From an uncultured bacterium (lineage in GTDB: Bacteria; Patescibacteriota; Minisyncoccia; Phycocordibacterales; DATDWN01), in NCBI GenBank assembly GCA_903861205.1, contig CAIOTC010000022.1, forward strand, positions 25-64,024: a stretch of 64,000 bases of DNA. The letters run 5' to 3'. The position numbers and the translations under genes are program-made. How positions within the stretch are numbered: the first letter of the stretch is position 1; the number at the start of each line of letters is the position of its first letter. The notes under the pieces were generated by a model that saw only the letters and a program-made list of their open reading frames with translations, was not told the DNA's origin and did no database searches. Shown here one piece after another: positions 10,047-64,000 of this stretch.

Positions 10047-10128
10047 TTATCCAATTGAACAATTGATTCATTGGGAAATTCATTGGAAATTGGAAATTGT
10101 TACTTGAAAATTATTTTGAGTTTGCATT
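10047..10128. repeat. Cargo-less copy of the IR pair that bounds the four-helix-bundle element (solo miniature element)
   Basis: aattttcaatttccaataaatgaatcaatt...aattgattcattgggaaattcattggaaattggaaattg matches the ends of the element at 61262-61705. Confidence 0.5.
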
Positions 10129-13093: not shown

Positions 13094-14848
13094 TTACTCT
13101 GACGCTACTCTCAAAACTTCTTCAATAGTTGTAGATCCCTGCACTGCCTGGAAAATGCCATCCTCGATCATGGTCAGCATACCTTCGGCTTCGGCTTGTT
13201 TTTGAATGGCGTCGGTTGTGCCGTCCTTTAAAATGACTTCCTTAATAGCCGGGGAAACTTTCATTATTTCGTGAATGCAAGCGCGACCGCTATACCCTTC
13301 CTCCGAGGCGGCACCTTTTTTCGGTCGCCAGAACGGCACCTTGTCCCAGGTGTCGGATTTGCCGACGATTTTTTCTTCCTGCAGAGCTTTCAAAATTTTG
13401 TCCATGTTGGCCGATTTGCCGAGAGTGGCCAGTTCAGGTTTTGTCAGGAAATATTTTTCCTTTTGGTCGGAAAGTTTTCGAACCAGTCGCTGGCCGATGA
13501 TGATATTTATGGTTGAAACGATGAGGAACGGTTCGACTTTCATATCCATCAGTCGCGGTACAGCGCCGGCGGCCGAGTTAGTGTGCAAAGTGGAGAGGAC
13601 GACGTGGCCGGTCAGCGAAGCGTTGATGGCGAGAGAGGCCGTTTCGTTGTCGCGAATTTCACCGACCATAATAATGTCCGGATCCTGGCGAACCAGCGTG
13701 CGCAATCCGTTGGCAAATGTCAAACCAATTTCCGAGCGAACTTGCGTTTGGTTGATGCGCTTCATTTGGTACTCGATCGGATCCTCGACGGTCGAAATGT
13801 TAACGTCCGGTGTATTGAGAATGTCGAGCACAGTATATAGTGTGGTCGTTTTTCCGGAACCAGTCGGGCCGGTGGTCAAAATCATGCCGGTCGTGGACTT
13901 GAGCGCGCGGTGAATTCGCTCGAGACCTTCGCCGTGAAAGCCAAGAACTTCCAGGGTGAAATTGGAAACATTCTCGCGAAGCAAACGCATGACAGTTTTT
14001 TCGCCGTAATACGTAGGCAATGTCGAAACGCGAAAGGAAACTTTTTCGCCGTTCATGTCGATTTTGAAACGGCCATCCTGTGGCAAGCGTTTTTCGTCGA
14101 GTTTGAGCGCGGAAAGAACTTTGATGCGCGCGGTAATCGAGGCGGCCGTGTTTTTCGGCAAAATCATGGCGTCGTGAAGCAAACCGTCGATGCGATAGCG
14201 CACCAAAAGCTCCTGCTCCTGCGGTTCGATGTGAATATCGGAAGCGTTTTGCAAAATGGCGTGTTTCAAAAGTGTGTCGACAATACGCACCACCGGCACG
14301 TCGTCGGCCAATTTTTTCAAATCATCTTCGGAAACATCCTCACCATCACCCGCGTCAGGAATGCTTTGAAGTTGGACAGCATCTTTGGCAATGAGATCAC
14401 CGAACTCGGCTTTGAGCGATTTTTGATACTGGAGCAGAACGCTTTTCATCGACTCGCCGTCGGTGAGCCTCGGCAAAATTTTCAAGCCGACTTTCTTTTT
14501 GATGAAATCGATGGCCGTCAAATCCTCGGTGTCGAGCATGGCTACCTCGAGCGCCGTGTCTGTTTTTTTGAAAGCAATGATGTTGTGGTTGCGGGCAATC
14601 GGTTCGGGCACAAGCGAGAGAACTTCGAACGGAATTTTTTCCGTTTTCAAATCGACAAAAGGAATGCCGAGAATGTAAGCTTGCATCCGGCGCAAATCGT
14701 CCTCGGTCAGTTTTCCACCATTGACCAAAATTTTGCCGATCCCCTCACCCGTTTTCTCGTGATCCTTTTCGGCCAGCGTCACATCCGCCCGAGAAACAAG
14801 ACCCGAGTCCAAAATAAAATCCCTAAGTTGTGATTCTTCAATGTGCAT
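13094..14848 (-). CDS. pilB: Type IV pilus assembly ATPase PilB (GspE family)
   Basis: 584 aa. Walker A GPTGSGKTTT, Asp box, His box, and an N-terminal GspII_E-type domain. Confidence 0.9.
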   Translation of the reverse strand: MHIEESQLRDFILDSGLVSRADVTLAEKDHEKTGEGIGKILVNGGKLTEDDLRRMQAYILGIPFVDLKTEKIPFEVLSLVPEPIARNHNIIAFKKTDTALEVAMLDTEDLTAIDFIKKKVGLKILPRLTDGESMKSVLLQYQKSLKAEFGDLIAKDAVQLQSIPDAGDGEDVSEDDLKKLADDVPVVRIVDTLLKHAILQNASDIHIEPQEQELLVRYRIDGLLHDAMILPKNTAASITARIKVLSALKLDEKRLPQDGRFKIDMNGEKVSFRVSTLPTYYGEKTVMRLLRENVSNFTLEVLGFHGEGLERIHRALKSTTGMILTTGPTGSGKTTTLYTVLDILNTPDVNISTVEDPIEYQMKRINQTQVRSEIGLTFANGLRTLVRQDPDIIMVGEIRDNETASLAINASLTGHVVLSTLHTNSAAGAVPRLMDMKVEPFLIVSTINIIIGQRLVRKLSDQKEKYFLTKPELATLGKSANMDKILKALQEEKIVGKSDTWDKVPFWRPKKGAASEEGYSGRACIHEIMKVSPAIKEVILKDGTTDAIQKQAEAEGMLTMIEDGIFQAVQGSTTIEEVLRVASE

Positions 14849-45896: not shown

Positions 45897-47486
45897 ATGG
45901 CCGTTTCAAAAATTTATAGCGCGCAGACGACGTTGCTCAACGCTCAAATTATTGATATTGAAATCGATTTGTCGAAAGGACTGCATGCGTTTACTATTGT
46001 CGGTCTGGGGGACACATCAGTCGGTGAGGCCAAGGACAGAGTATCATCGGCCATCAAAAATTCCGGCTTCAAGTCGCCGAAAATGAAAAATCAAAAAGTG
46101 GTCGTATCACTCGCTCCGGCGGACATCAAAAAAGAGGGTCCGCTTTTTGATTTGCCGATCGCCATCGCATATCTCATGGCGGCCGAGGAAATCAGAGTTG
46201 ATACCAAAAATAGAATTTTTGTCGGCGAACTCTCGCTCGATGGAGAACTGCGACCGATCAAAGGCGCGCTACCGATTGCTCAAAAAGCCAAGAAGGAAGG
46301 CTTCACGGAAATATTTTTGCCAAGAGAAAACGCCGAGGAAGCGTCGGCCATCTCCGGCATCACAGTGTACGGCGCAAAAAATCTGATGGAGGTTTTGCAA
46401 CATATAAATGTGAAGAGGCAAAAAGAAAGTGATGAAATTGAAGAAGATGGAAAAAAAGTTATCAAACACTTGGAAATGGCGCCGTATGTCCGGCAAGAAA
46501 AAATTTGCAAAGCACGCGAAATTGATATTGATTTCGCCGACGTCAAAGGTCAAGAATCGGCCAAAAGAGGATTGGAAATCGCGGCAGCCGGCGGACACAA
46601 TATCATCATGTTCGGGCCTCCGGGCACTGGCAAAACGATGTTGGCCAAAGCTTTCACGCACATCTTGCCACCGCTTTCTTTCGACGAAGTGCTCGAGGTT
46701 ACTTCCATTTATTCCATTGGCGGAGAGCTCGAGGGAGGACTGATCGAAGAACCGCCTTTCCGCGCGCCGCACCACACCGCTTCGTATGTTTCGCTGGTCG
46801 GCGGAGGAAATAATTTGCGTCCGGGAGAAATTACCATGGCTCACAAAGGCGTGCTTTTCATGGACGAGTTTCCGGAGTTCGACAAAAAAGTTTTGGAAAC
46901 TTTGCGCCAACCGCTCGAAGACAGGGTGGTGACGGTTTCGCGGGCCAAAGGCACCGCGCGATTTCCGGCCAATTTTATTTTGATCGCCACTATGAATCCG
47001 TGCCCGTGCGGAAATTACGGTGTGAAAGGCAAGGAATGCATTTGCAAATCGCAGGATATTGATAAATATAAAAGAAAATTGTCAGGGCCGATCGCCGACC
47101 GCATCGACATCTGGGTGGAAGTTTCAAAAGTAGAGCACGAAAAACTGACCGACGCGCGCGACAAAAATCTGATGACAGAAATATTAAAGGAACGTGTGAG
47201 GAAAGCGCGGGAAATCCAAAACAAAAGATATGAAAGCTTGGGATTGAAAAATAAAACAAACGCCGAACTGTCGCCAAAACATTTGATTGAATTTGTGAAG
47301 CTCGACGACAAAATCAAAAAAATATTGAACGACAGCGCAAAAAGATTGGATCTGTCTGCTCGCATGTATCACCGCATCATCAAAATCGCCCGCACCATCG
47401 CGGACCTCGCCGGTCGGGAAAATATCGAACAGGATGACATAATGGAAGCGCTGACATACCGCCCGAAAAAATACCAGGTGATATAA
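45897..47486 (+). CDS. comM: Mg-chelatase-like AAA+ ATPase ComM/YifB
   Basis: 529 aa. Lon-like N-domain, Walker A FGPPGTGKTMLAK, Walker B LFMDEFPEF, and a C-terminal domain. Confidence 0.9.
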   Translation: MAVSKIYSAQTTLLNAQIIDIEIDLSKGLHAFTIVGLGDTSVGEAKDRVSSAIKNSGFKSPKMKNQKVVVSLAPADIKKEGPLFDLPIAIAYLMAAEEIRVDTKNRIFVGELSLDGELRPIKGALPIAQKAKKEGFTEIFLPRENAEEASAISGITVYGAKNLMEVLQHINVKRQKESDEIEEDGKKVIKHLEMAPYVRQEKICKAREIDIDFADVKGQESAKRGLEIAAAGGHNIIMFGPPGTGKTMLAKAFTHILPPLSFDEVLEVTSIYSIGGELEGGLIEEPPFRAPHHTASYVSLVGGGNNLRPGEITMAHKGVLFMDEFPEFDKKVLETLRQPLEDRVVTVSRAKGTARFPANFILIATMNPCPCGNYGVKGKECICKSQDIDKYKRKLSGPIADRIDIWVEVSKVEHEKLTDARDKNLMTEILKERVRKAREIQNKRYESLGLKNKTNAELSPKHLIEFVKLDDKIKKILNDSAKRLDLSARMYHRIIKIARTIADLAGRENIEQDDIMEALTYRPKKYQVI

Positions 47487-52158: not shown

Positions 52159-53007
52159 ATGCAAGCAAAGAAATCACTGGGACAACATTTTTTGAAGTCA
52201 CAAAAAGCCATTGAAACGATGGTGAAAACTTCTGGCGCACAGACCGGTGATTTGGTGTTGGAAATTGGGCCGGGAATGGGGGTTTTGACGGAAGCGCTTT
52301 TGCAGGCTGGTGCAAGCGTGGTGGCAGTAGAAAAAGATGATTTGCTCATTCCTGTTTTGGAAGAGAAGTTTGAGAAAGAAATAAAATCTGGACAACTGAA
52401 ATTGATTCACGATGATATTTTAAATTTTGACGTGTCAAAGGTGCCCTTTGGCGGTTCCGAATTGCCAAGGGGCACCCTTGACACTTATAAACTTGTAGCA
52501 AATATTCCATATTACATTACCGGACAAATTATCAGAATATTTTTGGAAGCGGAAAATCAGCCGGAGTCGATGACTTTGCTCGTCCAAAAAGAAGTGGCCG
52601 AGAGAATCGTGGCTCGTGACGAAAAAGAAAGTTTGCTTTCGCTTTCGGTCAAAGCCTACGGCACGCCGAAATATGTTGAGAAAGTCCCACGCGGAGCTTT
52701 CGCTCCGGCACCGAACGTCGATTCGGCCATCATTCACATTTCAAACATTTCCAAAAATAATTTTCGCAAGAACGGTTCTTGCGAAAAATGTGAAAAAGAA
52801 TTTTTTGAGTTGATCCATGCCGGATTCGCTCACAAACGTAAAATGCTTTTGCCAAACCTCTCCTCGCTTTACGCAAAAGACGCGCTTTCGCGCGCCTTCG
52901 CAGAATGTAAACTTGATGTCAAATGCCGAGCAGAAGACGTTCCTCTCCAAAAATGGTTTGAACTTCTGCGAGAACTGTTCTCGCAAGAAGAAATTATTGA
53001 ACGGTAA
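52159..53007 (+). CDS. rsmA: 16S rRNA (adenine1518/1519-N6)-dimethyltransferase RsmA/KsgA
   Basis: LGQHFL..., VLEIGPGMGVLTEAL, NIPYYITGQI. It contains an in-frame 63 bp palindrome (52432-52494). Confidence 0.85.
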   Translation: MQAKKSLGQHFLKSQKAIETMVKTSGAQTGDLVLEIGPGMGVLTEALLQAGASVVAVEKDDLLIPVLEEKFEKEIKSGQLKLIHDDILNFDVSKVPFGGSELPRGTLDTYKLVANIPYYITGQIIRIFLEAENQPESMTLLVQKEVAERIVARDEKESLLSLSVKAYGTPKYVEKVPRGAFAPAPNVDSAIIHISNISKNNFRKNGSCEKCEKEFFELIHAGFAHKRKMLLPNLSSLYAKDALSRAFAECKLDVKCRAEDVPLQKWFELLRELFSQEEIIER

Positions 53008-54496
53008 TCGTTACTATACTGGTCATCCCGTTGTACGTCACGGCGATCGTTGCTGTGCCTTTTGAGACCGCCATAACTTGACCGCTGTGATCGGCGCTTG
53101 CGGCGTACGGATTGAATGTGACCATTTTGGCCACGGCCGGATTGCTTGAAATCCAGCTGGCTTGCGTTGTAATGGCCGACAAAGAACCTCCTGTCGTAGA
53201 ATTCTGCCAGGCTAAAAATTGGTAAGCGCTTCCGACCGACAGTGTGATGCTCGATGGCTGGACCAAAATATTTCCGTTGGTCGTCGCTCCTCCCGGCGAT
53301 GATGTATTACACGACGCTTTGCCGTTTATGAACGCTCTCGTGCTGGAACCAACATAACCCGTCCCGGCAGTCAAACCAAGTGGTGTCAAAATCTGGTCAG
53401 CATATTTTTCCTGGTAGGCAACAACAGCCTGATAAACAGCGTCATCGAATGTGCTTTGCGACTGAGGTAAAAGCCCTTCTCCGGCCAAAACGCCTGTTAA
53501 ATATGTTACGGCTGTTCCACTGTCACCTTTTTGGAGGTCGGATGTCAGAGGAATGCACGACGTTGAACCAGATGTTGAACTATTTGTAGTCGCAGGGGAT
53601 GGTGGCACATATTGGCTGAGCTGGCCCTGTAAATCGGCCAGTTGTTTTTTGTACGTGGCAATCATATTGCTCACATAATTCGTCGTGGCTTGTTGCGCAG
53701 TTGATGCGTTGGTCACGACAACAGGCGTCGTCTGGTTTCCGCCAGTCGTAATGCCCGAACCGCTTGGATTTATAGCTGCGCCGTTGGAAAAACTACCTTT
53801 GGCGCCTGTCATATCGGTCACCCAGTTGGTGTAAGCGTTTTGGGACAAATTACCTCCGTAGCCAAAATATCTGTCCAGGGCGTATCCGGCATTAACCATC
53901 TCTCCATTTGGCAATTTGATATAGGCCTGATCGGGATTATAAGTTCCGCCGAGCAAATTTTGAGGAACCATAACCACCGTACCGCCCGTACATGCTGCCA
54001 GTTTTTGCGCGGCATCAGTTGTAGCATACCAAAGAGGGTTTATCGGCACTTCAGGCTGAACTCCAGTTTGAGGATCAGGAAAACTCAAGCCTTTTACGTC
54101 ATTCTGGAGATAATTACTCGATGATCCACTGAAATTGCAGCTAACACCGTCAACCGGCGCAATAGTTATCGTGCCAGTCCCGCCATTTGAGCCGTTGTTT
54201 ACGGGCGGTAAAGTTGCGCAAGCATTGTAACAATTCGAAACGGTGTAAGCGCCCTGGCCAGTCGGATCAAGTTCGCATGAGTTGCCGGTGCATTTGTAGC
54301 GCACGGGAATCGGTGAACCGGCCACGCAGGAATTGTTGCAGGTGGCGGTGGAATACGGGCCATAGCCGGAAATAGCAGTGCATTGACCTCCAACGCAAGC
54401 ATAATCAGCATGAGTTAATGTTGGTAAAACAAATAAAAAGACTAAACTTAACGAAAATAAAATAAAATATTTTTTCATATGCACATATTGTATCAT
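52994..54496 (-). CDS. Secreted protein with a Cys-rich N-region, a peptidoglycan-binding (PG_binding_1-like) domain and a C-terminal Big_2 Ig-like domain
   Basis: Signal peptide MKKYFILFSLSLVFLFVLPTLTHA; LQKGDSGTAVTYLTGVLAGEGLL...AVYQAVVAYQEKY; the C-terminus ...AITTQASWISSNPAVAKMV...ATIAVTY.. is Big_2-like. Confidence 0.65.
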   Translation of the reverse strand: MIQYVHMKKYFILFSLSLVFLFVLPTLTHADYACVGGQCTAISGYGPYSTATCNNSCVAGSPIPVRYKCTGNSCELDPTGQGAYTVSNCYNACATLPPVNNGSNGGTGTITIAPVDGVSCNFSGSSSNYLQNDVKGLSFPDPQTGVQPEVPINPLWYATTDAAQKLAACTGGTVVMVPQNLLGGTYNPDQAYIKLPNGEMVNAGYALDRYFGYGGNLSQNAYTNWVTDMTGAKGSFSNGAAINPSGSGITTGGNQTTPVVVTNASTAQQATTNYVSNMIATYKKQLADLQGQLSQYVPPSPATTNSSTSGSTSCIPLTSDLQKGDSGTAVTYLTGVLAGEGLLPQSQSTFDDAVYQAVVAYQEKYADQILTPLGLTAGTGYVGSSTRAFINGKASCNTSSPGGATTNGNILVQPSSITLSVGSAYQFLAWQNSTTGGSLSAITTQASWISSNPAVAKMVTFNPYAASADHSGQVMAVSKGTATIAVTYNGMTSIVTITVQ

Positions 54497-54531
54497 TTTT
54501 TCTTGCTCCGCATGATATACTTATACACAAC

Positions 54532-55371
54532 ATGCCGGAAACAAACACCCGAAAAATTTTTGTTGTGCTTATCATTTGCCTGGCTATCGTGGCATCAGTG
54601 GCCATTTGGCAATGGCGAGCAAACTCGGCAACGTCGGAAACTCCAGCAAACACCGCCGACGTTGTTTCTGACAACTCAAACACAGACAACGCCAACTCCG
54701 CCGCGCAAAACTGGCAGGGAATTTTGTCGAATATAAAAAGCGACACCACGTCCGTTTTGGCGAACAATGACACGACAAATCCAACAGACGGAACATTGAC
54801 CGCCCAAATGGCCCAGGACTTTTTCTCCCAATATCTCGCTTTGAAACAAAACAACGGCACAGTCACGGCTGATGAAGCCAACCAAATCGCTCAAAGCACA
54901 CTGACTGGCGCAGCCTACACCAACGCCACCGGCGTCCAATATACGGCCAAGGATCTGCATATAAACGCGCAAACAAGCAGGGAGATCGTGCAGAAATATC
55001 ATGACGTTATAAACACAAGCCTTAAAAACAGAGCATTGAAAAATAAAGTTGACCCCCTTGCAATTCTCAACAGCGCGGTGAAAAACGGAAGCACTGCTGA
55101 CTTGGCAGAACTCAACCCTCTTATTGTAAATTTCAAAGGCGTTGTTTCAGATCTTGCCAGTATGTCAGTGCCAGCCGACGCCACCCAAGTCCATTTGGAT
55201 TTTCTAAACGCTTACAGCAATATTTTGGCCAATTTAGAATCAATGAAACTGACATTCTCCGACCCGGTTAAAAGTTTTGCCGCAGTCAGCCAATACAAAC
55301 AACACCTAGCAGATTTGCAAACTGCCGTGCAAAAAATTGACGCATATTTTTTGGCAAAATTAAAAAGTTAA
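54532..55371 (+). CDS. Membrane-anchored hypothetical protein (N-terminal TM helix, extracytoplasmic domain)
   Basis: 279 aa. N-terminus IFVVLIICLAIVASVAIW. Confidence 0.45.
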   Translation: MPETNTRKIFVVLIICLAIVASVAIWQWRANSATSETPANTADVVSDNSNTDNANSAAQNWQGILSNIKSDTTSVLANNDTTNPTDGTLTAQMAQDFFSQYLALKQNNGTVTADEANQIAQSTLTGAAYTNATGVQYTAKDLHINAQTSREIVQKYHDVINTSLKNRALKNKVDPLAILNSAVKNGSTADLAELNPLIVNFKGVVSDLASMSVPADATQVHLDFLNAYSNILANLESMKLTFSDPVKSFAAVSQYKQHLADLQTAVQKIDAYFLAKLKS

Positions 55372-55416
55372 AAAATTTTACTTTTCAACAGAGCACGCTG
55401 GGATTTTAAATGAGTA

Positions 55417-57066
55417 TTGATATATAATATAAGTGCGGTAATGTCTTTTTTAAAAATGACACACTATTTGAAATATAAAATAATTTTGGGCGCTGTTTGT
55501 TTATCTTTTTTATTTGTTTTTTTGCCTCAAAAAGCTAACGCGCAATTTGGTATACCTGTTGAAGATTACGATGTGGAAATAAACACCAGCTTCATGGCTG
55601 TTGACACATTTGATATCGCCGTTGCAACAGATATTACTGCAGGAGCTTCGGTTGATACGGCAGTAAACACGAGCGCAAACACATGGGCTAAAGAGTTTCT
55701 GGGTGACGGGGTGGCCAACTTCATTGCCAAAATGATTGTAAAACAATTAACCGCCCAAACGGTTAATTGGATCAATTCCGGTTTCAAAGGCAACCCGGCT
55801 TTCGTGACCAACCCCGAAGGCTTTTTCCTCAACGTCGGCGACCAAATGGCGGCCGATTTTCTGACCAACACTTCACTAAACGGCCTTTGCAGTCCTTTCC
55901 AAGCTAAAATCCGTTTGGCTCTGGTTAAAAATTACCTGGCCGAAACAAATAAAAATTATTCTTGTACCCTCGGCCGACTTGAACAAAATTTTGAAAACTT
56001 CGCCAACAATTTCGACCAGGGAGGCTGGGACGGCTGGTTTACCATGACTCAAACAACCCAAGGCAATCCGTATGGGGCGTATCTCGACACCAAGGATCAA
56101 CTGTCAATCAACCTTGGTAATCAGGCAATAAAATATCAAAACCAACTAAACTGGGGCAAGGGCATTTTGTCTTACGAAAAATGCAAGAAGGGGGCGACAA
56201 TAATAAATCCTGCCAGAACAGTTGACAACGCCATTGACCCGTCACAAGATCCAAATTCGCCAACAAACTTACAGAGACAAAATATTGTTAATTATCAGAA
56301 TGCCATAGATAAAGCCAAGAAAGCCTACCAGGCTCTAACATTGAAAACAACTCCAGTTGCCACTGCAGCAGAACTCAACGCGGCGCAAGCGGCTATAAAC
56401 CAAGCTCAAACAAATTTTGATAATTACAGAGCGGATCATGGAATAAGCGATGAGCAGTTAAATTCCACACTAACTAATATTGACAGTGGTTTGGGAGAAG
56501 GAGATTGTGCACCAAGCGATAAAGAAACGGTTACACCTGGAAGCGTCATCAGCAATCAGTTGGACAGCGCTCTTGGTCAAACATGGGGTGAGCTCGTTAG
56601 TGCAGACGAAATAAACGAAATCGTCAGTGCTCTCATGACCCAAATGATTAGCCATGTTGTTGGCGGAATAGGAGATGGTTTGAGAAGTTTAAGCCAAAGC
56701 GATTCGTCATCGAATTCAAATACGGGACGAACCCTAATGCAACAACTTGTTGATAGCACGGCTTCAACGTCACCGGAAACAACCAGCTTTAACAAAGGCG
56801 CAAACAGCTTAATACCGTCAAATTTGGGTGGAAGCGCAAATCCTACTCCGACAGCAGACACCCCTTCCAGGACAGATACCCAAAATAAATTACATTGCGA
56901 TTCATTATCAGATCCATCTTGTAATCAAAACAGTTCAGGAAGTGGTAGTGGTGCACCTTCAACTTACTGCCTCAATAATACCGGTGATTACTATTGCTCA
57001 ACATACAACGGTCATGCTAGTTGCAACGTAACACCACCAGGCATTGATCCAAATTGCATACCATAG
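55417..57066 (+). CDS. Exported hypothetical protein (549 aa) with signal peptide ...LSFLFVFLPQKANAQ
   Basis: Signal peptide plus an S/T/N/Q-rich surface-type protein ending with a Cys-rich tail. Confidence 0.45.
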   Translation: MIYNISAVMSFLKMTHYLKYKIILGAVCLSFLFVFLPQKANAQFGIPVEDYDVEINTSFMAVDTFDIAVATDITAGASVDTAVNTSANTWAKEFLGDGVANFIAKMIVKQLTAQTVNWINSGFKGNPAFVTNPEGFFLNVGDQMAADFLTNTSLNGLCSPFQAKIRLALVKNYLAETNKNYSCTLGRLEQNFENFANNFDQGGWDGWFTMTQTTQGNPYGAYLDTKDQLSINLGNQAIKYQNQLNWGKGILSYEKCKKGATIINPARTVDNAIDPSQDPNSPTNLQRQNIVNYQNAIDKAKKAYQALTLKTTPVATAAELNAAQAAINQAQTNFDNYRADHGISDEQLNSTLTNIDSGLGEGDCAPSDKETVTPGSVISNQLDSALGQTWGELVSADEINEIVSALMTQMISHVVGGIGDGLRSLSQSDSSSNSNTGRTLMQQLVDSTASTSPETTSFNKGANSLIPSNLGGSANPTPTADTPSRTDTQNKLHCDSLSDPSCNQNSSGSGSGAPSTYCLNNTGDYYCSTYNGHASCNVTPPGIDPNCIP

Positions 57067-57072
57067 AAATAA

Positions 57073-59430
57073 ATGAAAAAGTTTTTAATTTTCAGTTTAA
57101 TATTGATTCTCCTTGTCGGTGTTTTTGCACCGAGTGGGGTTGCATTTAGCGCGCCAGTTCCAGGCGGGGGCTCAGGCGGATACACCACAAACACGAATGG
57201 AACTGTTAATCAAAATGCCCAAAGCAATACCACTTCAAATCTATCCGCGATAATTATGGGTGCCCTCAGCGGTATATCTTATTTTATTCTTACCGCTATG
57301 GGCTGGCTTCTTTGGCTTTCAGGTATGCTTCTCAACCTAGTCCTTGACCAAACCATAATAAAATTCACAGCAAATATCGGAACCATGACGGGTATAAATA
57401 CTGCATGGAAAGTTATCCGCGATGTCATGAACATGTTCTTTATTTTTATACTCCTCTACAACGCCATCATGATTATTATCAGCCAGAAAAACAGAGGCGA
57501 CATCCAAAAAATTGTCGGTGGTATTGTCATCACGGCGCTTCTCATAAATTTCAGTATGTTCTTCACCAAAGTAATTATCGATGCTTCAAACATTGCCACA
57601 ATCGGATTTTATAATTCAATAATTAATGCCGGACAATCAACAGTCATAACTACTGGTACTGATTCTTCAGGGAATCCATTAACATCAAATTTGAGAATGG
57701 GGATTTCCGGCGCTTTCGCAAATGCTCTGCATATAACCAGTTTTTATTCTTCAAACGGCATAGCGAATCAACCCGCGCCGTCTTCAATGGTTATAATTTA
57801 TCTTGGAGGTGCTATTCTTTTTCTCATTGTGGCATTTGTTCTATTCGCAATAGCAGCAATGTTTGTTATTAGGTATGTCGCATTCATACTTCTACTAATG
57901 TTTTCACCTCTCGGTTTTATTGGATTTGGTTTGCCACAATTAAAAGGAGCTCAAGACGATTGGTGGAAAATACTTAAAGGTCAAGCGATTTTTGCGCCAC
58001 TATATATGTTTCTGACATGGGTAATTCTGACGCTCATGGGCAGTGATGGATTTATTCCAAAATCTGGCGCACTGGCAGACATTAATAATGCCGCTGATCC
58101 GACTGCGCAAATGGGAGCCATTGCACTCATAATAAACTTCGCGGTTATTATCATATTGATTATTTTCTCACTGACAAAATCGAAGGAGTACGCCGAGCAG
58201 GGTTCAAAATATCTCAGCCAAGCCACTGGCAAACTGACCGCCTTCGCTGGCGGGGTAGCAATGGGGGGCAGCGCGGCAATTATGAGAAATACAGCCGGGA
58301 GATATGCGAACAACAAAGCCAACGACCAGGATTTGAAAGATCGTGCTGCTAAGGGTGACAAACTTGCTCAGTTGCAGTTGAAAACTTACAGGGCGGCTGC
58401 AGCAGGAAGTTTTGACTTGAGAAGAAGCTCTGCAGGTGAACAAATAGCGAAAAGTACTGGCGTAAACTTCGGAAAAGGAATTCCATTTAATGAAAAATCT
58501 GGACAAGGTGGATTCAAGAAAGCAAAAGAAGAAAAAGCAAAGAAAGAACAAGAATATGCAAAATCCCTAAAACCTTCTGACGAAGAATACGAAATCGCAA
58601 AAGAAAAAGATGCTGAAATAAAAGCCGCACAGGCAAAACTAAAAGACGCAGGATTTATTGCTGAAGAAAAAAGAAGAAAAGATGGTGAGTTAAATTCTGA
58701 AAAATACAAAAATTCAGAAATGTATTTGAATGCAGAAAAAGAAAAAACAGAAAACGAAGCAAATGAAGCTAAGGTGATTACGGAAAAAGAAAAACAAGCA
58801 AAACTTGACGCAGAATTGAAAGAGATTGAGAAGTTAAAACAAAGTGCATCATATCTTCTCGACCAACAGAAACGAAAAGAAATTGATGATAATATTTCAG
58901 CAAAAAAACGAGAGATTGAGGACCAAAATGAAATAATATCAAAATTAAAAGAGAGTATAGAAAAAAATAGTGTAGCGACCAAAGAGCGTCAAAAATATGA
59001 GAATGAATGGAAGAGCAAGGATAAAAGTGATTTGGAAGAATTGGCAAAACAAGAAGCTAATAATGAAAAAGAGTTAGAAAATATTTGGAAAGAACGCAAG
59101 AATAATTATGCCGACAGCGTTGAAAATGCGTGGATGAAACGATATTCTATGACTATTCTTGGTGGTTTGGCGGGTGCCGCGTTGGGGGGGCCTATCGGTG
59201 CTGGGGTTGGCGCCGCAGTAGGCAAATCATTCGGTGGAACAAAAGCTGAGCAGGAACATATAGCCAGAAAAATAAGGAATGAAACGGGAAAGAAAAAAGA
59301 AATGACAAAAAAGGAAAAGGCTGAATTAAGAAAAAAATTGGATAAACTTGAAGACAAAGACAGTGATGAGGCGAAAGAGATAAAGAAAAAACTTGGTTGG
59401 GATGAAGAAGATAAAGAACTAGAAGAATAA
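57073..59430 (+). CDS. Polytopic membrane protein, VirB6/TrbL-like by topology, with a roughly 330 aa K/E-rich coiled-coil C-terminal tail
   Basis: Signal peptide, then at least 6 TM helices over about 400 aa, then a charged helical tail (KAKEEKAKKEQEYAKS...). Placement is within the T4SS-like gene neighbourhood. Confidence 0.45.
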   Translation: MKKFLIFSLILILLVGVFAPSGVAFSAPVPGGGSGGYTTNTNGTVNQNAQSNTTSNLSAIIMGALSGISYFILTAMGWLLWLSGMLLNLVLDQTIIKFTANIGTMTGINTAWKVIRDVMNMFFIFILLYNAIMIIISQKNRGDIQKIVGGIVITALLINFSMFFTKVIIDASNIATIGFYNSIINAGQSTVITTGTDSSGNPLTSNLRMGISGAFANALHITSFYSSNGIANQPAPSSMVIIYLGGAILFLIVAFVLFAIAAMFVIRYVAFILLLMFSPLGFIGFGLPQLKGAQDDWWKILKGQAIFAPLYMFLTWVILTLMGSDGFIPKSGALADINNAADPTAQMGAIALIINFAVIIILIIFSLTKSKEYAEQGSKYLSQATGKLTAFAGGVAMGGSAAIMRNTAGRYANNKANDQDLKDRAAKGDKLAQLQLKTYRAAAAGSFDLRRSSAGEQIAKSTGVNFGKGIPFNEKSGQGGFKKAKEEKAKKEQEYAKSLKPSDEEYEIAKEKDAEIKAAQAKLKDAGFIAEEKRRKDGELNSEKYKNSEMYLNAEKEKTENEANEAKVITEKEKQAKLDAELKEIEKLKQSASYLLDQQKRKEIDDNISAKKREIEDQNEIISKLKESIEKNSVATKERQKYENEWKSKDKSDLEELAKQEANNEKELENIWKERKNNYADSVENAWMKRYSMTILGGLAGAALGGPIGAGVGAAVGKSFGGTKAEQEHIARKIRNETGKKKEMTKKEKAELRKKLDKLEDKDSDEAKEIKKKLGWDEEDKELEE

Positions 59431-59433
59431 AAG

Positions 59434-60222
59434 ATGGACGAACAAACATTAAAACAAATGCCAGAATATGTGCAAAAACTCCCGAAAGAAGTGCGAGATT
59501 TTGTCTTTGACGGAGTTTGGGAAAGCAGAACAACAGAAATCGCAACAAAATATTCTTTGAACGAAAGCCAGACTGACACATTCATTAACAAAGTTTTATA
59601 CATTTTGATTGGGCTGGAAAATCCGGATGATTTTCTCAATTCAACAATTTCAGAGTTGAATATTTCGCGACTTTTAGCGACACAGATGATGGAAGAGATT
59701 GAAAAAAGAGTTTTTGAGTATGCAATAAATGAAATAGAAAAAAATAAAGTGCCGGAAGCGTCAAAGAAAACCTTCGACGCCAATGCTGACACCGAACCGG
59801 AAATTCCAGAGGTGCGACCGGAAATAACGCCCATGGTAGAGGGAGGCGAGAGTGTTCACACCAATCCGCCACCAGTTGAAACTCCAAAACCAGAAGTGGC
59901 AAGGACGGCCCTTGCCACTCCAGCTCCGAAACCAATTCCACAAGCGCCGGATAATTTACCGGGAGTTGAGCTTCCCAGTGCCGAGCGTCCCGGTGCCGAT
60001 GTTGCCGCTGCGCCTGCGGCACCGTCCCCCAATCCCGCTTCCGAGGTCGAACCCGAAAAAACTTTCATTGGTTCGGATTTCTTGCAGAAACCAGTTTCGC
60101 CCGAGGAGTTACCTCCGGTGTCCGACCCGAAGTCAGCACCCGAGGAAACTCCTCCGGCCATACCTACACCTCCTACTCCGCCTAAACACACTGTAGATCC
60201 ATACCGCGAACCAATTGAATAA
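59434..60222 (+). CDS. Hypothetical protein with a Pro-rich low-complexity C-terminal half
   Basis: 262 aa. Its start lies 4 nt after the stop of the upstream gene. Confidence 0.4.
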   Translation: MDEQTLKQMPEYVQKLPKEVRDFVFDGVWESRTTEIATKYSLNESQTDTFINKVLYILIGLENPDDFLNSTISELNISRLLATQMMEEIEKRVFEYAINEIEKNKVPEASKKTFDANADTEPEIPEVRPEITPMVEGGESVHTNPPPVETPKPEVARTALATPAPKPIPQAPDNLPGVELPSAERPGADVAAAPAAPSPNPASEVEPEKTFIGSDFLQKPVSPEELPPVSDPKSAPEETPPAIPTPPTPPKHTVDPYREPIE

Positions 60223-60263
60223 TAAAACAAAAAGACGCAAAAGCGTCTTTTTGTTTTATTATT
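60222..60263 (+). terminator. Strong rho-independent terminator (18 bp stem)
   Basis: aataaaacaaaaagacgcaaaagcgtctttttgttttatt. Confidence 0.7.
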
Positions 60264-60488
60264 CCCCCACCCTCGCAGAATAGTCCAAACATCTTCCACA
60301 GGGTTTGTGACGTGGTCTACGGCGCAAAGCCGTGTCGGTCAAACGGGTTTAGTCACTTTAGTGAAAATAAATTCACAACCACTTGACCCAAGTCGTATTA
60401 CCAGTTTGGCTGACGATACGACACTGTAATGATTTTATATTATCAAATTGTAGAATTTGTGCAAATATTCTGTTAAAATTAAAGTGAT

Positions 60489-60707
60489 ATGAGAGAAGTC
60501 AAAACTATAACAAAAAATTTTTTAGATTGGATAAAAATAAAGGAATTCTTACACTTCAAAAAAAATCCTGCTGGTTTTGAGACGAGCGCACCTTTGTCAC
60601 AAGCCAGAACAATTTCTTCCAAAAGACTTGTTAGGCTGATTGATAAGATGAGTAGTGATTCTTTCAAAGAATTAAAAACAGCCCTAAATAAGGCTATTTT
60701 TAAGTGA
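60489..60707 (+). CDS. Small hypothetical protein (72 aa)
   Basis: ORF only. Confidence 0.25.
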   Translation: MREVKTITKNFLDWIKIKEFLHFKKNPAGFETSAPLSQARTISSKRLVRLIDKMSSDSFKELKTALNKAIFK

Positions 60708-60793
60708 TTGCACTCTCACTTTCGTGAGAGCGATTGCCCCCGAAGGGATTTATGAATAAAGTATATCAACTCAAAGTGAAAAGTCAATGAGGT

Positions 60794-61264
60794 GTGGATA
60801 AGAAAAATGAGCTAAAATACAACTATATGAAATATCAAGTTCCACAATTCATCGAAATAGAAGACAAAATTATCGGGCCTTTGACGATCAAGCAGTTCGT
60901 TTACCTGGCCGGGGGAGCGGGAATGTGCTTTATCGCTTACCGATTTTTACCATTCCTCATTGCTATCGTTCTGATGGCAGTTATTATCGCTTTGTCACTG
61001 GCGCTGGCTTTTTACAAAGTCAACAATCGAAATTTCATCGAACTTTTGGAATCAATGTTTAATTTTTACACCAAAAGCCGGCTGTATATTTGGAAAAAGG
61101 AAGTTAAACAAATATCAAGAAATAAGGCGCCAGCTACGACAGCACTGGAACAAATATTCGTTCCAAAACTTTCCGAAAGCAAATTGAAAGAATTGTCGTG
61201 GAGTTTGGACATTAATGAGAACCTGAATCCATTAACGGGAGAGGAGGGAAAGAATACCAAATAA
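60794..61264 (+). CDS. Small two-TM membrane protein, a possible VirB3/PrgI-like T4SS component. It contains the 22 nt coding repeat.
   Basis: LTIKQFVYLAGGAGMCFIAYRFLPFLIAIVLMAVIIALSLALAF. It is positioned upstream of the VirB4-like gene. Confidence 0.4.
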   Translation: MDKKNELKYNYMKYQVPQFIEIEDKIIGPLTIKQFVYLAGGAGMCFIAYRFLPFLIAIVLMAVIIALSLALAFYKVNNRNFIELLESMFNFYTKSRLYIWKKEVKQISRNKAPATTALEQIFVPKLSESKLKELSWSLDINENLNPLTGEEGKNTK

Positions 61265-61705
61265 TTTTCAATTTCCAATTCTCAATTTTCAAACAATGAA
61301 TAAATTTTCAATGTATGAATTACGATTTAGAAAATAGGACAAGAGTTTTTTCAAAAAATATTCTTTGTTTTTGCAAGAAAATAAAAATTAATTATTTAAA
61401 CTCAAACATAATTTCTCAATTACTTAGATCGTCTACCAGTGTTGGAGCAAATTATTGCGAAGCAAACAACGCTAGTTCCAAAAATGATTTTAGAAATAAA
61501 ATTTATCTTTCAAGGAAGGAAATCCAAGAAACTGAGTACTGGCTAGATTTACTGGCAGAAATTTGTGAGATAAACGACGAATTACAAAAATTGCAGAAGG
61601 AAACGAGGGAACTTATACTGATTTTTAATAAGATTACTTTTTCATTGAAAAATTGAATCATTGGAAATTTTTTGAAAATTGAGAATTGGAAATTGAAAAT
61701 TTTTT
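61262..61705 (+). mobile_element. Inverted-repeat-bounded element carrying a four-helix-bundle (23S rRNA IVS-type) protein gene. The inverted repeats (IRs) are about 40 bp each.
   Basis: Left aattttcaatttccaattctcaattttcaaacaatgaat; right attgaatcattggaaattttttgaaaattgagaattggaaattgaaaa, which is its reverse complement. A cargo-less copy of the IR pair is at 10047-10128. Confidence 0.55.
61315..61656 (+). CDS. Four-helix-bundle protein (TIGR02436 / 23S rRNA intervening-sequence protein family)
   Basis: ...ISQLLRSSTSVGANYCEANNASSKNDFRNKIYLSRKEIQETEYWLDL... Confidence 0.7.
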   Translation: MNYDLENRTRVFSKNILCFCKKIKINYLNSNIISQLLRSSTSVGANYCEANNASSKNDFRNKIYLSRKEIQETEYWLDLLAEICEINDELQKLQKETRELILIFNKITFSLKN

Positions 61706-61722
61706 TGTGCTATAATATTCAC

Positions 61723-62358
61723 ATGGCAGTTTCTTCAAAAGCAACACAGGAATTTGTGCCGATCAAAGAAGTGCGCGATGGAGTGGTTATTCTGAAAACC
61801 GGCTCGATGCGCGCGGTTGTTTTGGCCTCATCGCTGAATTTTTCTCTCAAATCGGACGACGAGCGCGAGGCTATCGTCAGCCAGTTCCAAGATTTTTTGA
61901 ACTCGCTCGATTTCGAAGTGGAAATTTCCATTCAGTCCCGTCGGCTGGATATACGGCCGTACATAGCCCTGCTGGAGGAACAGTACAAAAAACAACTTAA
62001 CGACTTGATGAAAATCCAGACGCGCGAATACATCGAGTTCATCAAAAAATTCACAGAGTCAACTAACATCATGACCAAAAGTTTCTTTGTCGTCGTGCCA
62101 TATGATCCGGCCATCATCGGCGGAGGAGCGGGCGGCGGAATTTTCCAAAAACAATCGGCCGAAGAAAAAGTTCAAGCCAAGCAAGCAACATTCGAAGAAA
62201 ACCGAACACAACTCGAGCAGAGAGTTTCTGTGGTGGAGCAAGGTTTGGTTCGCTCCGGAATCCGCGTCATCAGACTGGGAACCGAAGAAGTGATAGAGTT
62301 GTTCTATAAGATTTTCAATCCGGGGGATACGGAGAAACCAATCAAGGTTAGCAGTTAG
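61723..62358 (+). CDS. Hypothetical protein (211 aa), probably leaderless (tgcTATAAT ends 6 nt before the ATG), just upstream of the VirB4-like gene
   Basis: MAVSSKATQEFVPIKEVRDGVVILKTGSMRAVVLASS...GGGAGGG. No family assigned. Confidence 0.45.
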   Translation: MAVSSKATQEFVPIKEVRDGVVILKTGSMRAVVLASSLNFSLKSDDEREAIVSQFQDFLNSLDFEVEISIQSRRLDIRPYIALLEEQYKKQLNDLMKIQTREYIEFIKKFTESTNIMTKSFFVVVPYDPAIIGGGAGGGIFQKQSAEEKVQAKQATFEENRTQLEQRVSVVEQGLVRSGIRVIRLGTEEVIELFYKIFNPGDTEKPIKVSS

Positions 62359-62430
62359 AATATAGTAGTTAGCATTTAGGAAAAATGCCGATGCATTCAC
62401 CTAAATTCTACCTACTAACTACTAAATACT

Positions 62431-64000
62431 ATGTCATTTCTAGATTTTTTCAAAACAAAAAAGGAACCCGAGATTGGCTCGATTTTGCCTTCCGAAATTT
62501 ACGAGGCTGGCACTTTGGAACTGAAAGACATCATCGCTCCTAGCGCTTTGAAAATTTCACCGAAAGAAATCAATCTCGGAGAGAAAATCACCCGCAGTTT
62601 TTTCGTCATTTCATATCCGCGCTACCTCTCCGAAAGCTGGTTTGCACCCATTATCAACCTCGATAAAATTTTTGATGTTTCCATTTTCATTTCACCCATC
62701 GAAACGGCTCAAGTCCTGCGCACCTTCCAGAAAAAAGTGGCTGAGGTACAGAGCCAAATCAGCGTTCGAGAAAGCAAGGGCCTGGTTCGTGATCCGAAAC
62801 TCGATACCGCTTACCAAGATCTCGAAAACTTGCGCGATCAACTCCAACAAGCCCAGGAAAAACTTTTTGACGTCGGTCTGTACATGACTATATATGGCGA
62901 GAGTGAAGGTGAGTTGGACAAAACGGAATCCGAAATAAAATCCATTCTCGAGTCCAAAATGGTTTACGTCAAACCAGCCCTTTTCCAACAGGAGCAAGGC
63001 TTTCGAACCACTCTGCCCATCGGCACCGACGAACTGAAAGTTTACAGCAAAATGAATTCCTCGCCACTTTCGTCTCTTTTTCCATTCATTTCGTTTGACT
63101 TGACCTCCGACAAAGGCATTCTCTACGGCATCAACCGCCACAACTCGTCCTTGGTTCTTTTTGATCGATTTTCTTTGGAAAACTACAACTCGATCACCTT
63201 CGCTAAGTCCGGCGCCGGGAAGAGCGTAAAGGGGTCCGAGCCGGTGCTGATTAGAAAAAATGGTAGTATTTCGCTAGAAAAAATCGGACCGTTGGTAGAA
63301 AAAACGATTCGAAAACAAGGTAAAACAAAACTCGACGGTGAAATGGAGGGGGTGGTTGACCCAGGATTTGAAGTTTGGAGTTTTGATAAAGAATTGAAAG
63401 GTTCGTGGAGCAAAGTTTCTGTGGCAGCCCGCAAAGACGCTCCGAATATTTATTATAGTTTCAAAACTAAAAGCGGGCGAGAAATAACCACCACGGAAGA
63501 TCACAACATGCTTGTTTTACGTGATGGGCGAGTAAATGTCGCAAAAAGTACAGAAATAAAAGAAGGGGAATTCGTACCATTACCTCGCGCCGTTTCTTTT
63601 TCCGAAAACTCGCCGATAAAATTAAATCTTTTGGATTTTTTCAAAAACGAACCGCGAATGTATGTGACTGGCGTAGCTGATATTATTGCCAGAATTCACA
63701 AAGCATACTCGCGAGAAGCTATTGACGTAAAATATGACGCTTATTTACCAATGTATAAAAAAGGCAGACGTGTTCCTTTGGAATTCTTTAATAAACTTCT
63801 CAAAAAATCAGAAATTATACTAACAGACGAGAAAATATCATCGCTTAATATCACATCTAGAAATGGCAAGAGCAAATTGCCTGCACTTTTTACAGTTACA
63901 AAAGACCTTGGAACACTTCTGGGTTACATCAGCGCCGAAGGAACCATAAACCGTGACGCCATACATATTAGTAATATAGATGTGGATGTTTTGGTTATAA
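62431..64000 (+). CDS. VirB4/TrbE/TraC-like T4SS ATPase (partial, runs off the window end). The Walker A P-loop is interrupted by an intein with a LAGLIDADG-like homing-endonuclease motif.
   Basis: N-terminus ...LKDIIAPSALKISPKEINLGEKITRSFFVISYPRYLSESWFAPII is a VirB4-family N-domain pattern. Walker A FAKSGAGK at 63199-63222 is followed directly by an intein-like SVKGSEPVLIRKNGSISLEKIG (block A-like). Further intein-like motifs are TTTEDHNMLVL (block B TxxH) and LLGYISAEGTI. The frame is open to the window end. Confidence 0.6.
   Translation, partial: MSFLDFFKTKKEPEIGSILPSEIYEAGTLELKDIIAPSALKISPKEINLGEKITRSFFVISYPRYLSESWFAPIINLDKIFDVSIFISPIETAQVLRTFQKKVAEVQSQISVRESKGLVRDPKLDTAYQDLENLRDQLQQAQEKLFDVGLYMTIYGESEGELDKTESEIKSILESKMVYVKPALFQQEQGFRTTLPIGTDELKVYSKMNSSPLSSLFPFISFDLTSDKGILYGINRHNSSLVLFDRFSLENYNSITFAKSGAGKSVKGSEPVLIRKNGSISLEKIGPLVEKTIRKQGKTKLDGEMEGVVDPGFEVWSFDKELKGSWSKVSVAARKDAPNIYYSFKTKSGREITTTEDHNMLVLRDGRVNVAKSTEIKEGEFVPLPRAVSFSENSPIKLNLLDFFKNEPRMYVTGVADIIARIHKAYSREAIDVKYDAYLPMYKKGRRVPLEFFNKLLKKSEIILTDEKISSLNITSRNGKSKLPALFTVTKDLGTLLGYISAEGTINRDAIHISNIDVDVLVI

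Follow-up and report, generated by a model that had tools for sequence, protein, structure and literature searches.

Is a gene cluster that resembles the conjugation machinery of Gram-positive bacteria a mobile element that moves DNA between cells, or is it a resident system of the chromosome in which it lies? We consider this question for the locus at positions 52994-64000 of a 64,000-nt stretch of contig CAIOTC010000022.1 (hereafter the window), which comes from an uncultured member of the Patescibacteriota. A previous description made from the letters of the window (the sequence-only reading) had proposed Gram-positive type IV secretion system (T4SS)-like machinery with many uncharacterised partners, and this core reading holds. 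The locus is very probably a chromosomal, origin-proximal T4SS of the kind typical of Patescibacteria, here in a genome of the Paceibacteria (Parcubacteria). The system, related to monoderm conjugation machinery (MPF_FATA) but without the DNA-processing parts, unites VirB4, a TrsD-like N-domain protein, PrgI/VirB3 and an extended VirB6 in a conserved order between housekeeping flanks. The open reading frames (ORFs) and their order from 52994 to the end of the window are those that the sequence-only reading had given. Genes and inserted elements lie on the forward strand unless stated otherwise.

The core machinery and its chromosomal position

VirB4 is split over two ORFs, a TrsD-like gene at 61723-62358 and the main ATPase gene, which starts at 62431 and continues past the end of the window. 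The product of the main ORF matches the CD1110 family (E = 3e-42, profile positions 184-431) and VirB4_plasma (E = 7e-34). The sequence-only reading had therefore recognised the VirB4-family ATPase correctly, and it had missed both the division into two ORFs and an intein in the Walker A motif. The part encoded before the intein (the N-extein, 62431-63222) stops at the Walker A lysine (GAGK) and is 80-91% identical to intein-free VirB4 proteins of 603 amino acids (aa), nearly all of them from Paceibacteria/Parcubacteria. Judged by these matches, VirB4 would be a Patescibacteria-clade, MPF_FATA-related protein. The TrsD-like protein of 211 aa (228 aa if counted from the TTG used by the ORF lister) is the equivalent of the VirB4 N-terminal domain, here with a gene of its own. 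It matches VirB4_plasma (E = 4.5e-12) and positions 2-117 of the CD1110 profile, which is only the N-terminal part of the VirB4 models, as well as TrsD/TraD (E = 2.3e-5); the annotation of the homologue collection adds PF26593, TraC-like. The PrgI/VirB3-like protein (60794-61264, probable start ATG at 60827) had been named as such in the sequence-only reading and matches PF12666 (E = 1.8e-10, 41.6 bits against a cutoff of 27). According to its hydropathy, it forms a single long hydrophobic hairpin.

The 785-aa polytopic protein encoded at 57073-59430 supplies the membrane component. Hydropathy indicates a signal peptide and about seven hydrophobic segments, followed by a tail of 356 aa (residues 430-785) that consists of K, R, E and D to 44% and is modelled as long helices; hydropathy and the AlphaFold2 model bear out the polytopic protein with a charged tail that had been read from the sequence. 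A word index yielded at least 196 homologues, almost all of 650-820 aa and from Paceibacteria. Two of these relatives, P0213 and P0228, match Pfam TrbL/VirB6 with 28.5 and 25.1 bits, and only P0213 passes the cutoff of 25.9. The AlphaFold2 model, built from 92 sequences, has a mean predicted local distance difference test (pLDDT) score of 82, and a Foldseek search against 350,542 PDB chains gave TrwI/VirB6 chains of the R388 stalk as its four best matches (probability 0.80-0.96). In an hhalign comparison of the family with TrwI, an invariant R267...S278-P279...W297 block is aligned (E = 0.005), and the model also matches Legionella DotA. Profile searches of PDB sequences with the families of the 785-aa and 549-aa proteins returned coiled-coil or chance matches only. 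The 785-aa protein is an extended VirB6; we place it in the "extended VirB6" class noted in a 2025 review (PMC12857230) because of its charged, long-helix tail. Within the tail, residues about 690-720 (59140-59235) form a Gly/Ala-rich hydrophobic segment, YSMTILGGLAGAALGGPIGAGVGAAVGKSFGG, of low model confidence, which could be a re-entrant or glycine-zipper membrane segment.

One genome per GTDB species was scanned with the VirB4 N-extein and 502 relatives were confirmed; the locus counts reported here cover the best 80 of these 502, all of them metagenome-assembled genomes of Paceibacteria type (e.g., Zambryskibacteria, Taylorbacteria and Parcubacteria). Searches of the 80 loci with the window proteins (tblastn) revealed the conserved order uvrD-ksgA-(500)-279-549-785-(262)-prgI-trsD-virB4, and both order and orientation are constant in the relatives except in one rearranged locus (L061). 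The trsD-like gene was detected in 78 of the 80 loci, in each case directly upstream of virB4, prgI in 77, the virB6-like gene in 66, the 549-aa gene in 63, ksgA in 53, the 279-aa gene in 35, uvrD/pcrA in 34, the 262-aa gene in 20 and the 500-aa gene in 11, and the misses mostly reflect short contigs or divergence out of tblastn's range. Median identities are 80% for the VirB4 N-extein, a value inflated because the loci were picked by VirB4 similarity, 66% for the TrsD-like protein, 52% for PrgI and about 30% for the envelope proteins. The sequence-only reading had staked its interpretation on VirB4 and VirB6 homology and on a neighbourhood that is not scattered in related genomes. Matches to both families were found with hidden Markov models (HMMs) and structures, and the neighbourhood is conserved in 80 species.

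Both flanks of this neighbourhood consist of housekeeping genes. The gene ksgA lies directly upstream of the locus within the window. In the relative L007, virB4 is followed by genes for a secreted protein of 357 aa and for proteins of 289 and 540 aa (L007:11965-15536) and then by yidC, rnpA, dnaA and dnaN. The same succession occurs in about 50 of roughly 60 loci of sufficient length, equivalents of the three genes exist in about 55-70 related loci, and in about 50 relatives the distance from virB4 to the downstream dnaA-dnaN is 6-8 kb. We infer the dnaA side of the locus in the window genome from these relatives.

The sequence-only reading had also proposed that a relaxase or a VirD4 coupling protein be sought downstream of the window. 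None was found with Pfam among the nine large ORFs of the window or among the ORFs downstream of virB4 in L007 and L018. A tblastn search with R388 TrwB and TrwC, of limited sensitivity, gave no match in the window or within ±10 kb of the loci of relatives; TrwK, the positive control, matched 70 loci. Because the flanks are conserved and relaxase and VirD4-like genes were not found in these searches, we take the locus for a core system of the chromosome near its origin rather than for a mobile element. The competing explanation is that the locus is the transfer module of a Gram-positive-type conjugative element, namely an integrative and conjugative element (ICE) or an integrated plasmid, that carries DNA between cells. 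Its appeal is that VirB4, TrsD and PrgI match families defined on CTn2 CD1110, a Mycoplasma ICE, pGO1 and pCF10, and that the locus has acquired selfish elements. However, the position between ksgA and dnaA is constant in dozens of species, the window and the ±10 kb surroundings in relatives revealed neither a relaxase nor a coupling protein nor an integrase, and the GC content of the locus (42.0%) does not depart from that of the whole window (43.5%). Relaxases are moreover found in only 103 Patescibacteria genomes (PMC12102498). With fixed housekeeping flanks, ordinary GC content and neither relaxase nor coupling protein in the regions searched, we reject the conjugative element as largely refuted and regard it as highly improbable.

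Envelope partners and a proposed conduit

Between ksgA and prgI, the locus encodes a series of further proteins, and none of the 500-, 279-, 549-, 785- and 262-aa proteins has an above-threshold family match. Hydropathy supports the signal peptides or N-terminal anchors that had been read on the 500-, 279- and 549-aa proteins. The 279-aa protein (54532-55371), which has one N-terminal membrane anchor and belongs to no known family, is a clade-specific partner whose gene occupies the same position in the 35 loci noted above at a median identity of 24%. The 262-aa protein (59434-60222) likewise belongs to no known family and has neither a transmembrane segment nor a signal peptide; its C-terminal half is 26% Pro, in line with the Pro-rich protein of the sequence-only reading. 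The 500-aa secreted protein (52994-54496) is encoded on the reverse strand and divergently transcribed. It had been described as Cys-rich with peptidoglycan-binding and Big_2 domains. Its signal peptide or anchor and its cysteines (8 Cys in residues 34-93) are confirmed; the two domains are not, since in searches with pieces of the protein the C-terminal Big_2-like domain reached 21.4 bits (cutoff 22.8) and the PG_binding_1-like segment 13.8 bits (cutoff 23). Because these matches are under threshold, wall binding by the 500-aa protein is plausible and not established. Its gene occupies this place in only 11 of the 80 loci, and its membership in the T4SS is uncertain.

The three proteins encoded downstream of virB4 in relatives are probably further parts of the system. 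In L007, the 357-aa protein is secreted and beta-rich, and the 540-aa protein has a weak beta-propeller-like match (DUF5050). The 289-aa protein, two genes downstream of virB4, combines a pilin-like N-terminal segment with a larger C-terminal domain; the segment matches PF18895 (E = 2e-5) and the Mbov_0395 pilin-like family (E = 5e-4). Since relatives carry this VirB2-like pilin close behind virB4, a short pilus or conduit is probably what the machine assembles. In such a machine, PrgI/VirB3 would anchor a VirB4 hexamer, the TrsD-like protein would supply or duplicate the VirB4 N-domain, and the hexamer would power assembly on the VirB6 membrane platform by extracting pilin-like subunits. The resulting pilus or conduit would extend toward a host cell, as proposed for Saccharibacteria, and the 549-aa protein would be the stalk or tip subunit that touches the host. 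In the window genome, the ATPase activity of VirB4 would further need intein splicing.

The same apparatus could be imagined to work in the opposite sense, as a machine for the uptake of DNA or other macromolecules (ComB-like, or importing host RNA or nucleotides) rather than for export or pilus formation. Neither a coupling protein nor a relaxase was found in the regions searched, Patescibacteria cannot synthesise nucleotides, and in class ABY1 the T4SS lies beside comF, recG and radA (PMC12102498). A 2026 preprint ties tubular structures at the parasite-host interface, maybe T4SS pili, to the acquisition of host RNA, and a 2025 FEMS review, which proposes a pilus conduit for signals or uptake, speculates on uptake via the T4SS pilus (PMC12857230). 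However, in Southlakia epibionticum comEC-dependent transformation is dispensable and the T4SS is essential (PMC12857230). The direction of transport is not readable from sequence, and the uptake machine would differ from a pilus-building T4SS only in cargo and direction. We consider an uptake machine unlikely, if distinctly less so than a conjugative element.

We regard the 549-aa secreted protein (55417-57066; probable start ATG at 55441, MSFLK...) as the leading candidate for a host-contacting stalk or tip subunit. Its gene ends 7 nt upstream of virB6, and trwJ and trwI stand in the same order in R388. An exhaustive HMM search showed that this clade-specific family comprises at least 5584 clusters at 50% identity, of which 2985 are below E = 1e-30. 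Its members have conserved cysteines, many carry variable C-terminal surface immunoglobulin (Ig)-like/TIG domains, and lengths reach 1247 aa; no bridge to VirB5/TrbJ appears among the best 150 matches listed. In two relatives, P0244 and P0264, a DUF4141 match adjoins the end of the signal peptide (33.0 and 32.7 bits, cutoff 30), and relatives match the N-terminus of TrbJ models at E about 4e-4. The predicted mature N-terminus after the Sec signal peptide reads AQFGIPVED in the 549-aa protein and AQGIPVFD in R388 TrwJ/VirB5 (motif compared: GIPV.D / V.DP.NL.Q). This short motif suggests a VirB5/TrbJ-like N-terminus and is a lead, not a proof of homology. As a tentative and rather doubtful proposal, the 549-aa family might be the VirB5 counterpart of the Patescibacteria T4SS, in which the N-terminus would dock to the extended VirB6 and the Ig-like C-terminus, at the tip of a VirB2-like pilus, would recognise the host. 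If this proposal were true, a complete VirB2-VirB5-VirB6 pilus module would be present in a monoderm T4SS for the first time, and the rare Walker A intein in VirB4 would add a post-translational gate on its assembly. The 549-aa family offers a concrete, testable link to VirB5-type stalk and tip subunits.

Several points weigh against a resident, host-directed T4SS and the roles assigned to its parts. The pilin and the dnaA side are seen in relatives, and their expected position is past the end of the window; the PF18895 match of the pilin-like segment (24.9 bits) is under the Pfam cutoff of 26.6. The coupling-protein search used a Gram-negative query and covered only the window and ±10 kb in relatives, and VirD4-like proteins are encoded elsewhere in most Patescibacteria genomes (PMC12102498). 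The C-terminal splice junction of the intein lies beyond the window, so that splicing of the window copy is only predicted. The 785-aa protein itself matches no Pfam family, and its Foldseek E-values to TrwI are 0.14-0.6. Essentiality data come from another class, the Saccharimonadia. The VirB5 link of the 549-aa protein spans only about 17-35 residues. When its family was aligned to seven VirB5 proteins with hhalign, only the N-terminal motif was aligned (17 columns, P = 0.008, probability 5%), and hhalign against TrwJ alone was negative; PF07996 (VirB5) gave no match in the 549-aa protein and five relatives, whereas TrwJ matches it at E = 3e-35. Structure prediction, which the sequence-only reading had suggested for both the 549-aa and 785-aa proteins, succeeded for the latter only. 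The AlphaFold2 model of the 549-aa protein is poor (pLDDT 61.5, predicted template modelling score 0.40), and the Foldseek result, generic helical bundles with a best E-value of 0.2, is uninformative because of this poor model.

Selfish insertions and other features of the window

The intein occupies 63223-64000 and runs off the end of the window. Alignment of VirB4 with intein-free 603-aa homologues, which are 91% identical in the extein, and with the L018 protein places the insertion between K264 and the Walker A serine (GAGK|S). The first intein residue, Ser1, is S265 (nt 63223), directly after GAGK. A block B motif TEDH (TxxH) follows at aa 355 (nt 63493), and a first LAGLIDADG-like motif, LGYISAEG, the sole one within the window, at aa 497 (nt 63919). 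The intein N-terminus matches TIGR01445 (E = 8e-13), and PF14890 reaches 34.9 bits on the sequence cut by the window, against a cutoff of 35.8. A complete counterpart is found in L018, in which a VirB4 of 1264 aa contains an orthologous intein of about 660 aa (PF14528, E = 4.5e-21) that ends in ...FIHN; SYATKLEIL follows and restores GKSY. According to these motifs, the insertion is a predicted Ser1 LAGLIDADG class 1 intein at the Walker A site of VirB4, and the ATPase is expected to work only after the intein splices out. Inteins are rare in this position: one of the 80 related species loci has it, and PF14890 occurs in four of the top 120 VirB4 homologues. The three that were aligned (P0001, P0002 and P0004) are interrupted at the same site, and P0004, an Andersenbacteria protein, has only 49% overall identity to the window fragment. 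An intein at one site in so distant a VirB4 is the pattern that would be expected of a homing element. Short metagenome contigs of the window organism tend to stop inside the intein.

The second insertion is a 453-nt element between prgI and trsD (61256-61708). The sequence-only reading had described an inverted-repeat-bounded cargo element, and the bounded insertion is real, but it is not cargo of the T4SS. Its arms (61256-61320 and 61644-61708) are 65 nt long, 80% complementary with a 31-nt perfect core, and composed of AATTTTC heptamers; in the RNA, they pair into a stem of about 40 bp that encloses the whole internal ORF (z = -5.95). This ORF (61315-61656) encodes a 113-aa four-helix-bundle protein of the S23p/23S_rRNA_IVP family (PF05635, E = 1.4e-16; TIGR02436, E = 1.1e-21), which we abbreviate as IVP, and we call the element intervening sequence (IVS)-like. 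The IVP gene is present in only three other loci (L041:5822-6299, L061:9528-9979 and L075:8777-9247), each time in a different spacer and with its own inverted repeats of short tandem units, the sequences of which differ between species. Its apparent absence from L001, L002 and L005 is an artefact of where these contigs end. The IVS architecture and the scattered positions in relatives identify the element as a sporadic selfish insertion and not as T4SS cargo; it may represent an IVS-type mobile element that targets protein operons too. L061 (JBBTSQ010000032.1) is the sole rearranged T4SS cluster: its envelope-gene half and dnaA side are inverted relative to virB4, and its IVP gene lies at the rearrangement junction, adjoining virB4. 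In the window, a promoter-like site with an extended -10 (TGGAAA-18-TATAAT, preceded by TG) occupies 61687-61716 in the right arm, 7 nt before the trsD-like ATG. From this consensus match, the insertion may supply a putative outward promoter of its own. AATTTTC-type arm-like sequences also occur at 10017-10118, in the spacer between a pilin-like gene and pilC, and at 1764-1794, and one of them matches at 81% over 65 nt. These sequences may represent solo arms, remnants or a repeat dispersed through the genome.

The spacers of the locus contain further additions. A spacer of 570 nt (60265-60793) that is missing from relatives houses a 72-aa MazF/PemK-like ORF (60489-60707; PF02452, E = 8.6e-4). 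The ORF resembles the C-terminal third of the toxin, aligns to profile positions 65-108 of 109, has out-of-frame fragments upstream and found no tblastn match in the 80 loci; it is probably a decayed toxin gene or insertion. The IVS-like element and the MazF remnant are selfish insertions and not parts of the machine. Ahead of this spacer, a perfect 22-bp hairpin (60217-60264) begins within the final codons of the 262-aa gene, with T-rich sequence after it. The hairpin probably serves as an intrinsic terminator. It is absent from the results of the consensus scan for promoters and terminators, the counts of which were no higher than the shuffled expectation. The trsD-like gene and virB4, separated by about 3 nt in relatives, are 72 nt apart in the window (62359-62430). 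This palindromic spacer (fold z = -4.06) contains CTAACTA repeats and could be a small insertion resembling a miniature inverted-repeat transposable element or an attenuator. A search of the spacers at 60.2-62.4 kb with Rfam yielded nothing but hairpin noise.

So many additions raise the possibility that the locus is decaying and has lost its function in the window genome, through the intein, the IVS-like element, the toxin remnant and the extra spacers. Relative to the 80 relatives there are three or four insertions, and the P-loop, without which the ATPase cannot work, is interrupted by the intein. However, all ORFs of the system are intact and of full length, the insertions other than the intein are all intergenic, and the N-extein retains its 80-91% identity to intein-free homologues with no frameshift. 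The intein retains Ser1 and the TxxH block B, and in its L018 orthologue the HN|S junction is intact. The promoter-like site in the right arm of the IVS-like element precedes the trsD-like ATG. Decay is therefore very unlikely in our estimation, as unlikely as the conjugative element, and the locus is best read as a resident T4SS with selfish insertions. Even so strongly conserved an operon is invaded by a homing intein and an S23p element. Insertions of this kind can break up assemblies and lead gene callers astray, for instance to a truncated VirB4 or to partial VirB4 proteins.

The sequence-only reading had further listed a 22-nt coding repeat, and no such direct repeat was found. One candidate was a 19/22 match between the Leu/Phe/Val-rich signal-peptide codons of the 500-aa and 549-aa genes; the 11 kb contain 26 comparable inverted-repeat pairs, this one included, and the match is at chance level. 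The other was the perfect 22-nt hairpin at 60217-60264, which is mostly non-coding. Neither was retained.

Outside the locus, the window contains a type IV pilus cluster (PilB, 13094-14848; PilC, 10129-11346; and a pilin-like 610-aa protein with an N-methyl motif and CarboxypepD_reg domains, 8214-10046) and ComM (45897-47486), as had been read from the sequence. Both are consistent with an epibiont-type Patescibacteria genome. At 43.5% GC, the description of the genome as low-GC is weaker than had been stated. A Pfam scan also identified RecJ, PNPase and RNase Y, and Rfam found five tRNAs and no rRNA in the window.

Relation to known systems

According to Quiñonero-Coronel et al. (2025, PMC12102498), the Patescibacteria T4SS is defined by a monophyletic VirB4 clade beside MPF_FATA. 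TrsD is its commonest companion, PrgI/VirB3, VirB6 and VirB2-like pilins also occur, relaxases are almost absent, and in Paceibacteria the system adjoins dnaA, dnaN, rnpA and ksgA. In Southlakia epibionticum, the homologous cluster SEML1_0006-0019, in which pilins were noted and recognisable coupling and relaxase proteins are lacking, is essential for epibiotic growth (Wang et al., 2023, PMC10633639). The T4SS of Patescibacteria matters as the sole T4SS known to be essential for the growth of its owner and as a nearly universal system of these bacteria. Its importance has already been argued in the literature, and the window is one more example. The sequence-only reading had considered the locus plausibly an undescribed variant, which does not stand: the same components, the absence of relaxases and the chromosomal position have been published (PMC12102498, PMC10633639, PMC12857230). 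What the species-wide gene order in Paceibacteria adds is a set of named conserved partners (the 279-, 549- and 262-aa proteins and the products of the three downstream genes) as structural targets.

The best family matches of VirB4, TrsD, PrgI and the pilin-like protein are the MPF_FATA conjugative T4SSs of monoderms, with C. difficile CTn2 CD1110, Mycoplasma ICE Mbov_0397/0395, pGO1 TrsD and pCF10 PrgI/PrgH/PrgJ as references. The NCBIfam scores are far under the equivalog cutoffs of these families (e.g., 144.9 against 325). Unlike the MPF_FATA systems, the window locus has no relaxase, no nearby coupling protein and no mobile-element context, and no VirB8-like or VirB1-like match was found in the window. 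The distance to the T4SS of R388 is greater, as the organism is a monoderm without VirB7, VirB9 and VirB10. The 785-aa protein shares only 10-16% sequence identity with R388 TrwI (PDB 7O3V, 8RT9) and the DotA protochannel (9NGY) and carries the 356-aa charged tail that TrwI does not have; the body of the 549-aa protein, unlike that of R388 TrwJ, has no VirB5 (PF07996) similarity.

The insertions can be compared with known elements as well. Few VirB4 inteins are known, namely five from Firmicutes and Proteobacteria (Novikova et al., 2016, PMC4760082). The window copy shares with these P-loop inteins the Walker A site and, as predicted, class 1 and a LAGLIDADG homing endonuclease, and it differs from the five in its Ser1 and in its host, a chromosomal T4SS of Patescibacteria. 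The IVS of Coxiella burnetii is 428-444 nt long, has a 28-bp terminal stem and heptameric repeats, encodes S23p and is excised by RNase III (PMC4990558). The window element has in common with 23S rRNA IVSs a size of about 430-450 nt, terminal repeats that form a long stem, tandem heptamers and an S23p ORF in the loop. In contrast to the Coxiella type, it resides in an intergenic spacer of a protein operon and not in helix 45 of 23S rRNA.

The comparison with the literature on Patescibacteria T4SSs identifies the locus as a further member of a published kind. The system was described between 2023 and 2025, and the window copy is ordinary apart from three selfish insertions. PMC12102498 does not treat the 279-, 549- and 262-aa partners or the charged tail of VirB6. 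The intein, the S23p element and the MazF remnant do not appear there either, and the terms "intein", "23S" and "four helix" have 0 occurrences. Saccharimonadia have arrays of pilin genes, whereas the Paceibacteria relatives examined have a single pilin-like gene. In common with the Patescibacteria clade, the locus has an MPF_FATA-related VirB4, with a separate TrsD-like protein, PrgI/VirB3 and VirB6 encoded beside it, a nearby VirB2-like pilin (in relatives only), no relaxase and a chromosomal position near ksgA, rnpA and dnaA. The intein in Walker A, the IVS-like S23p element and the MazF remnant are particular to the window copy.

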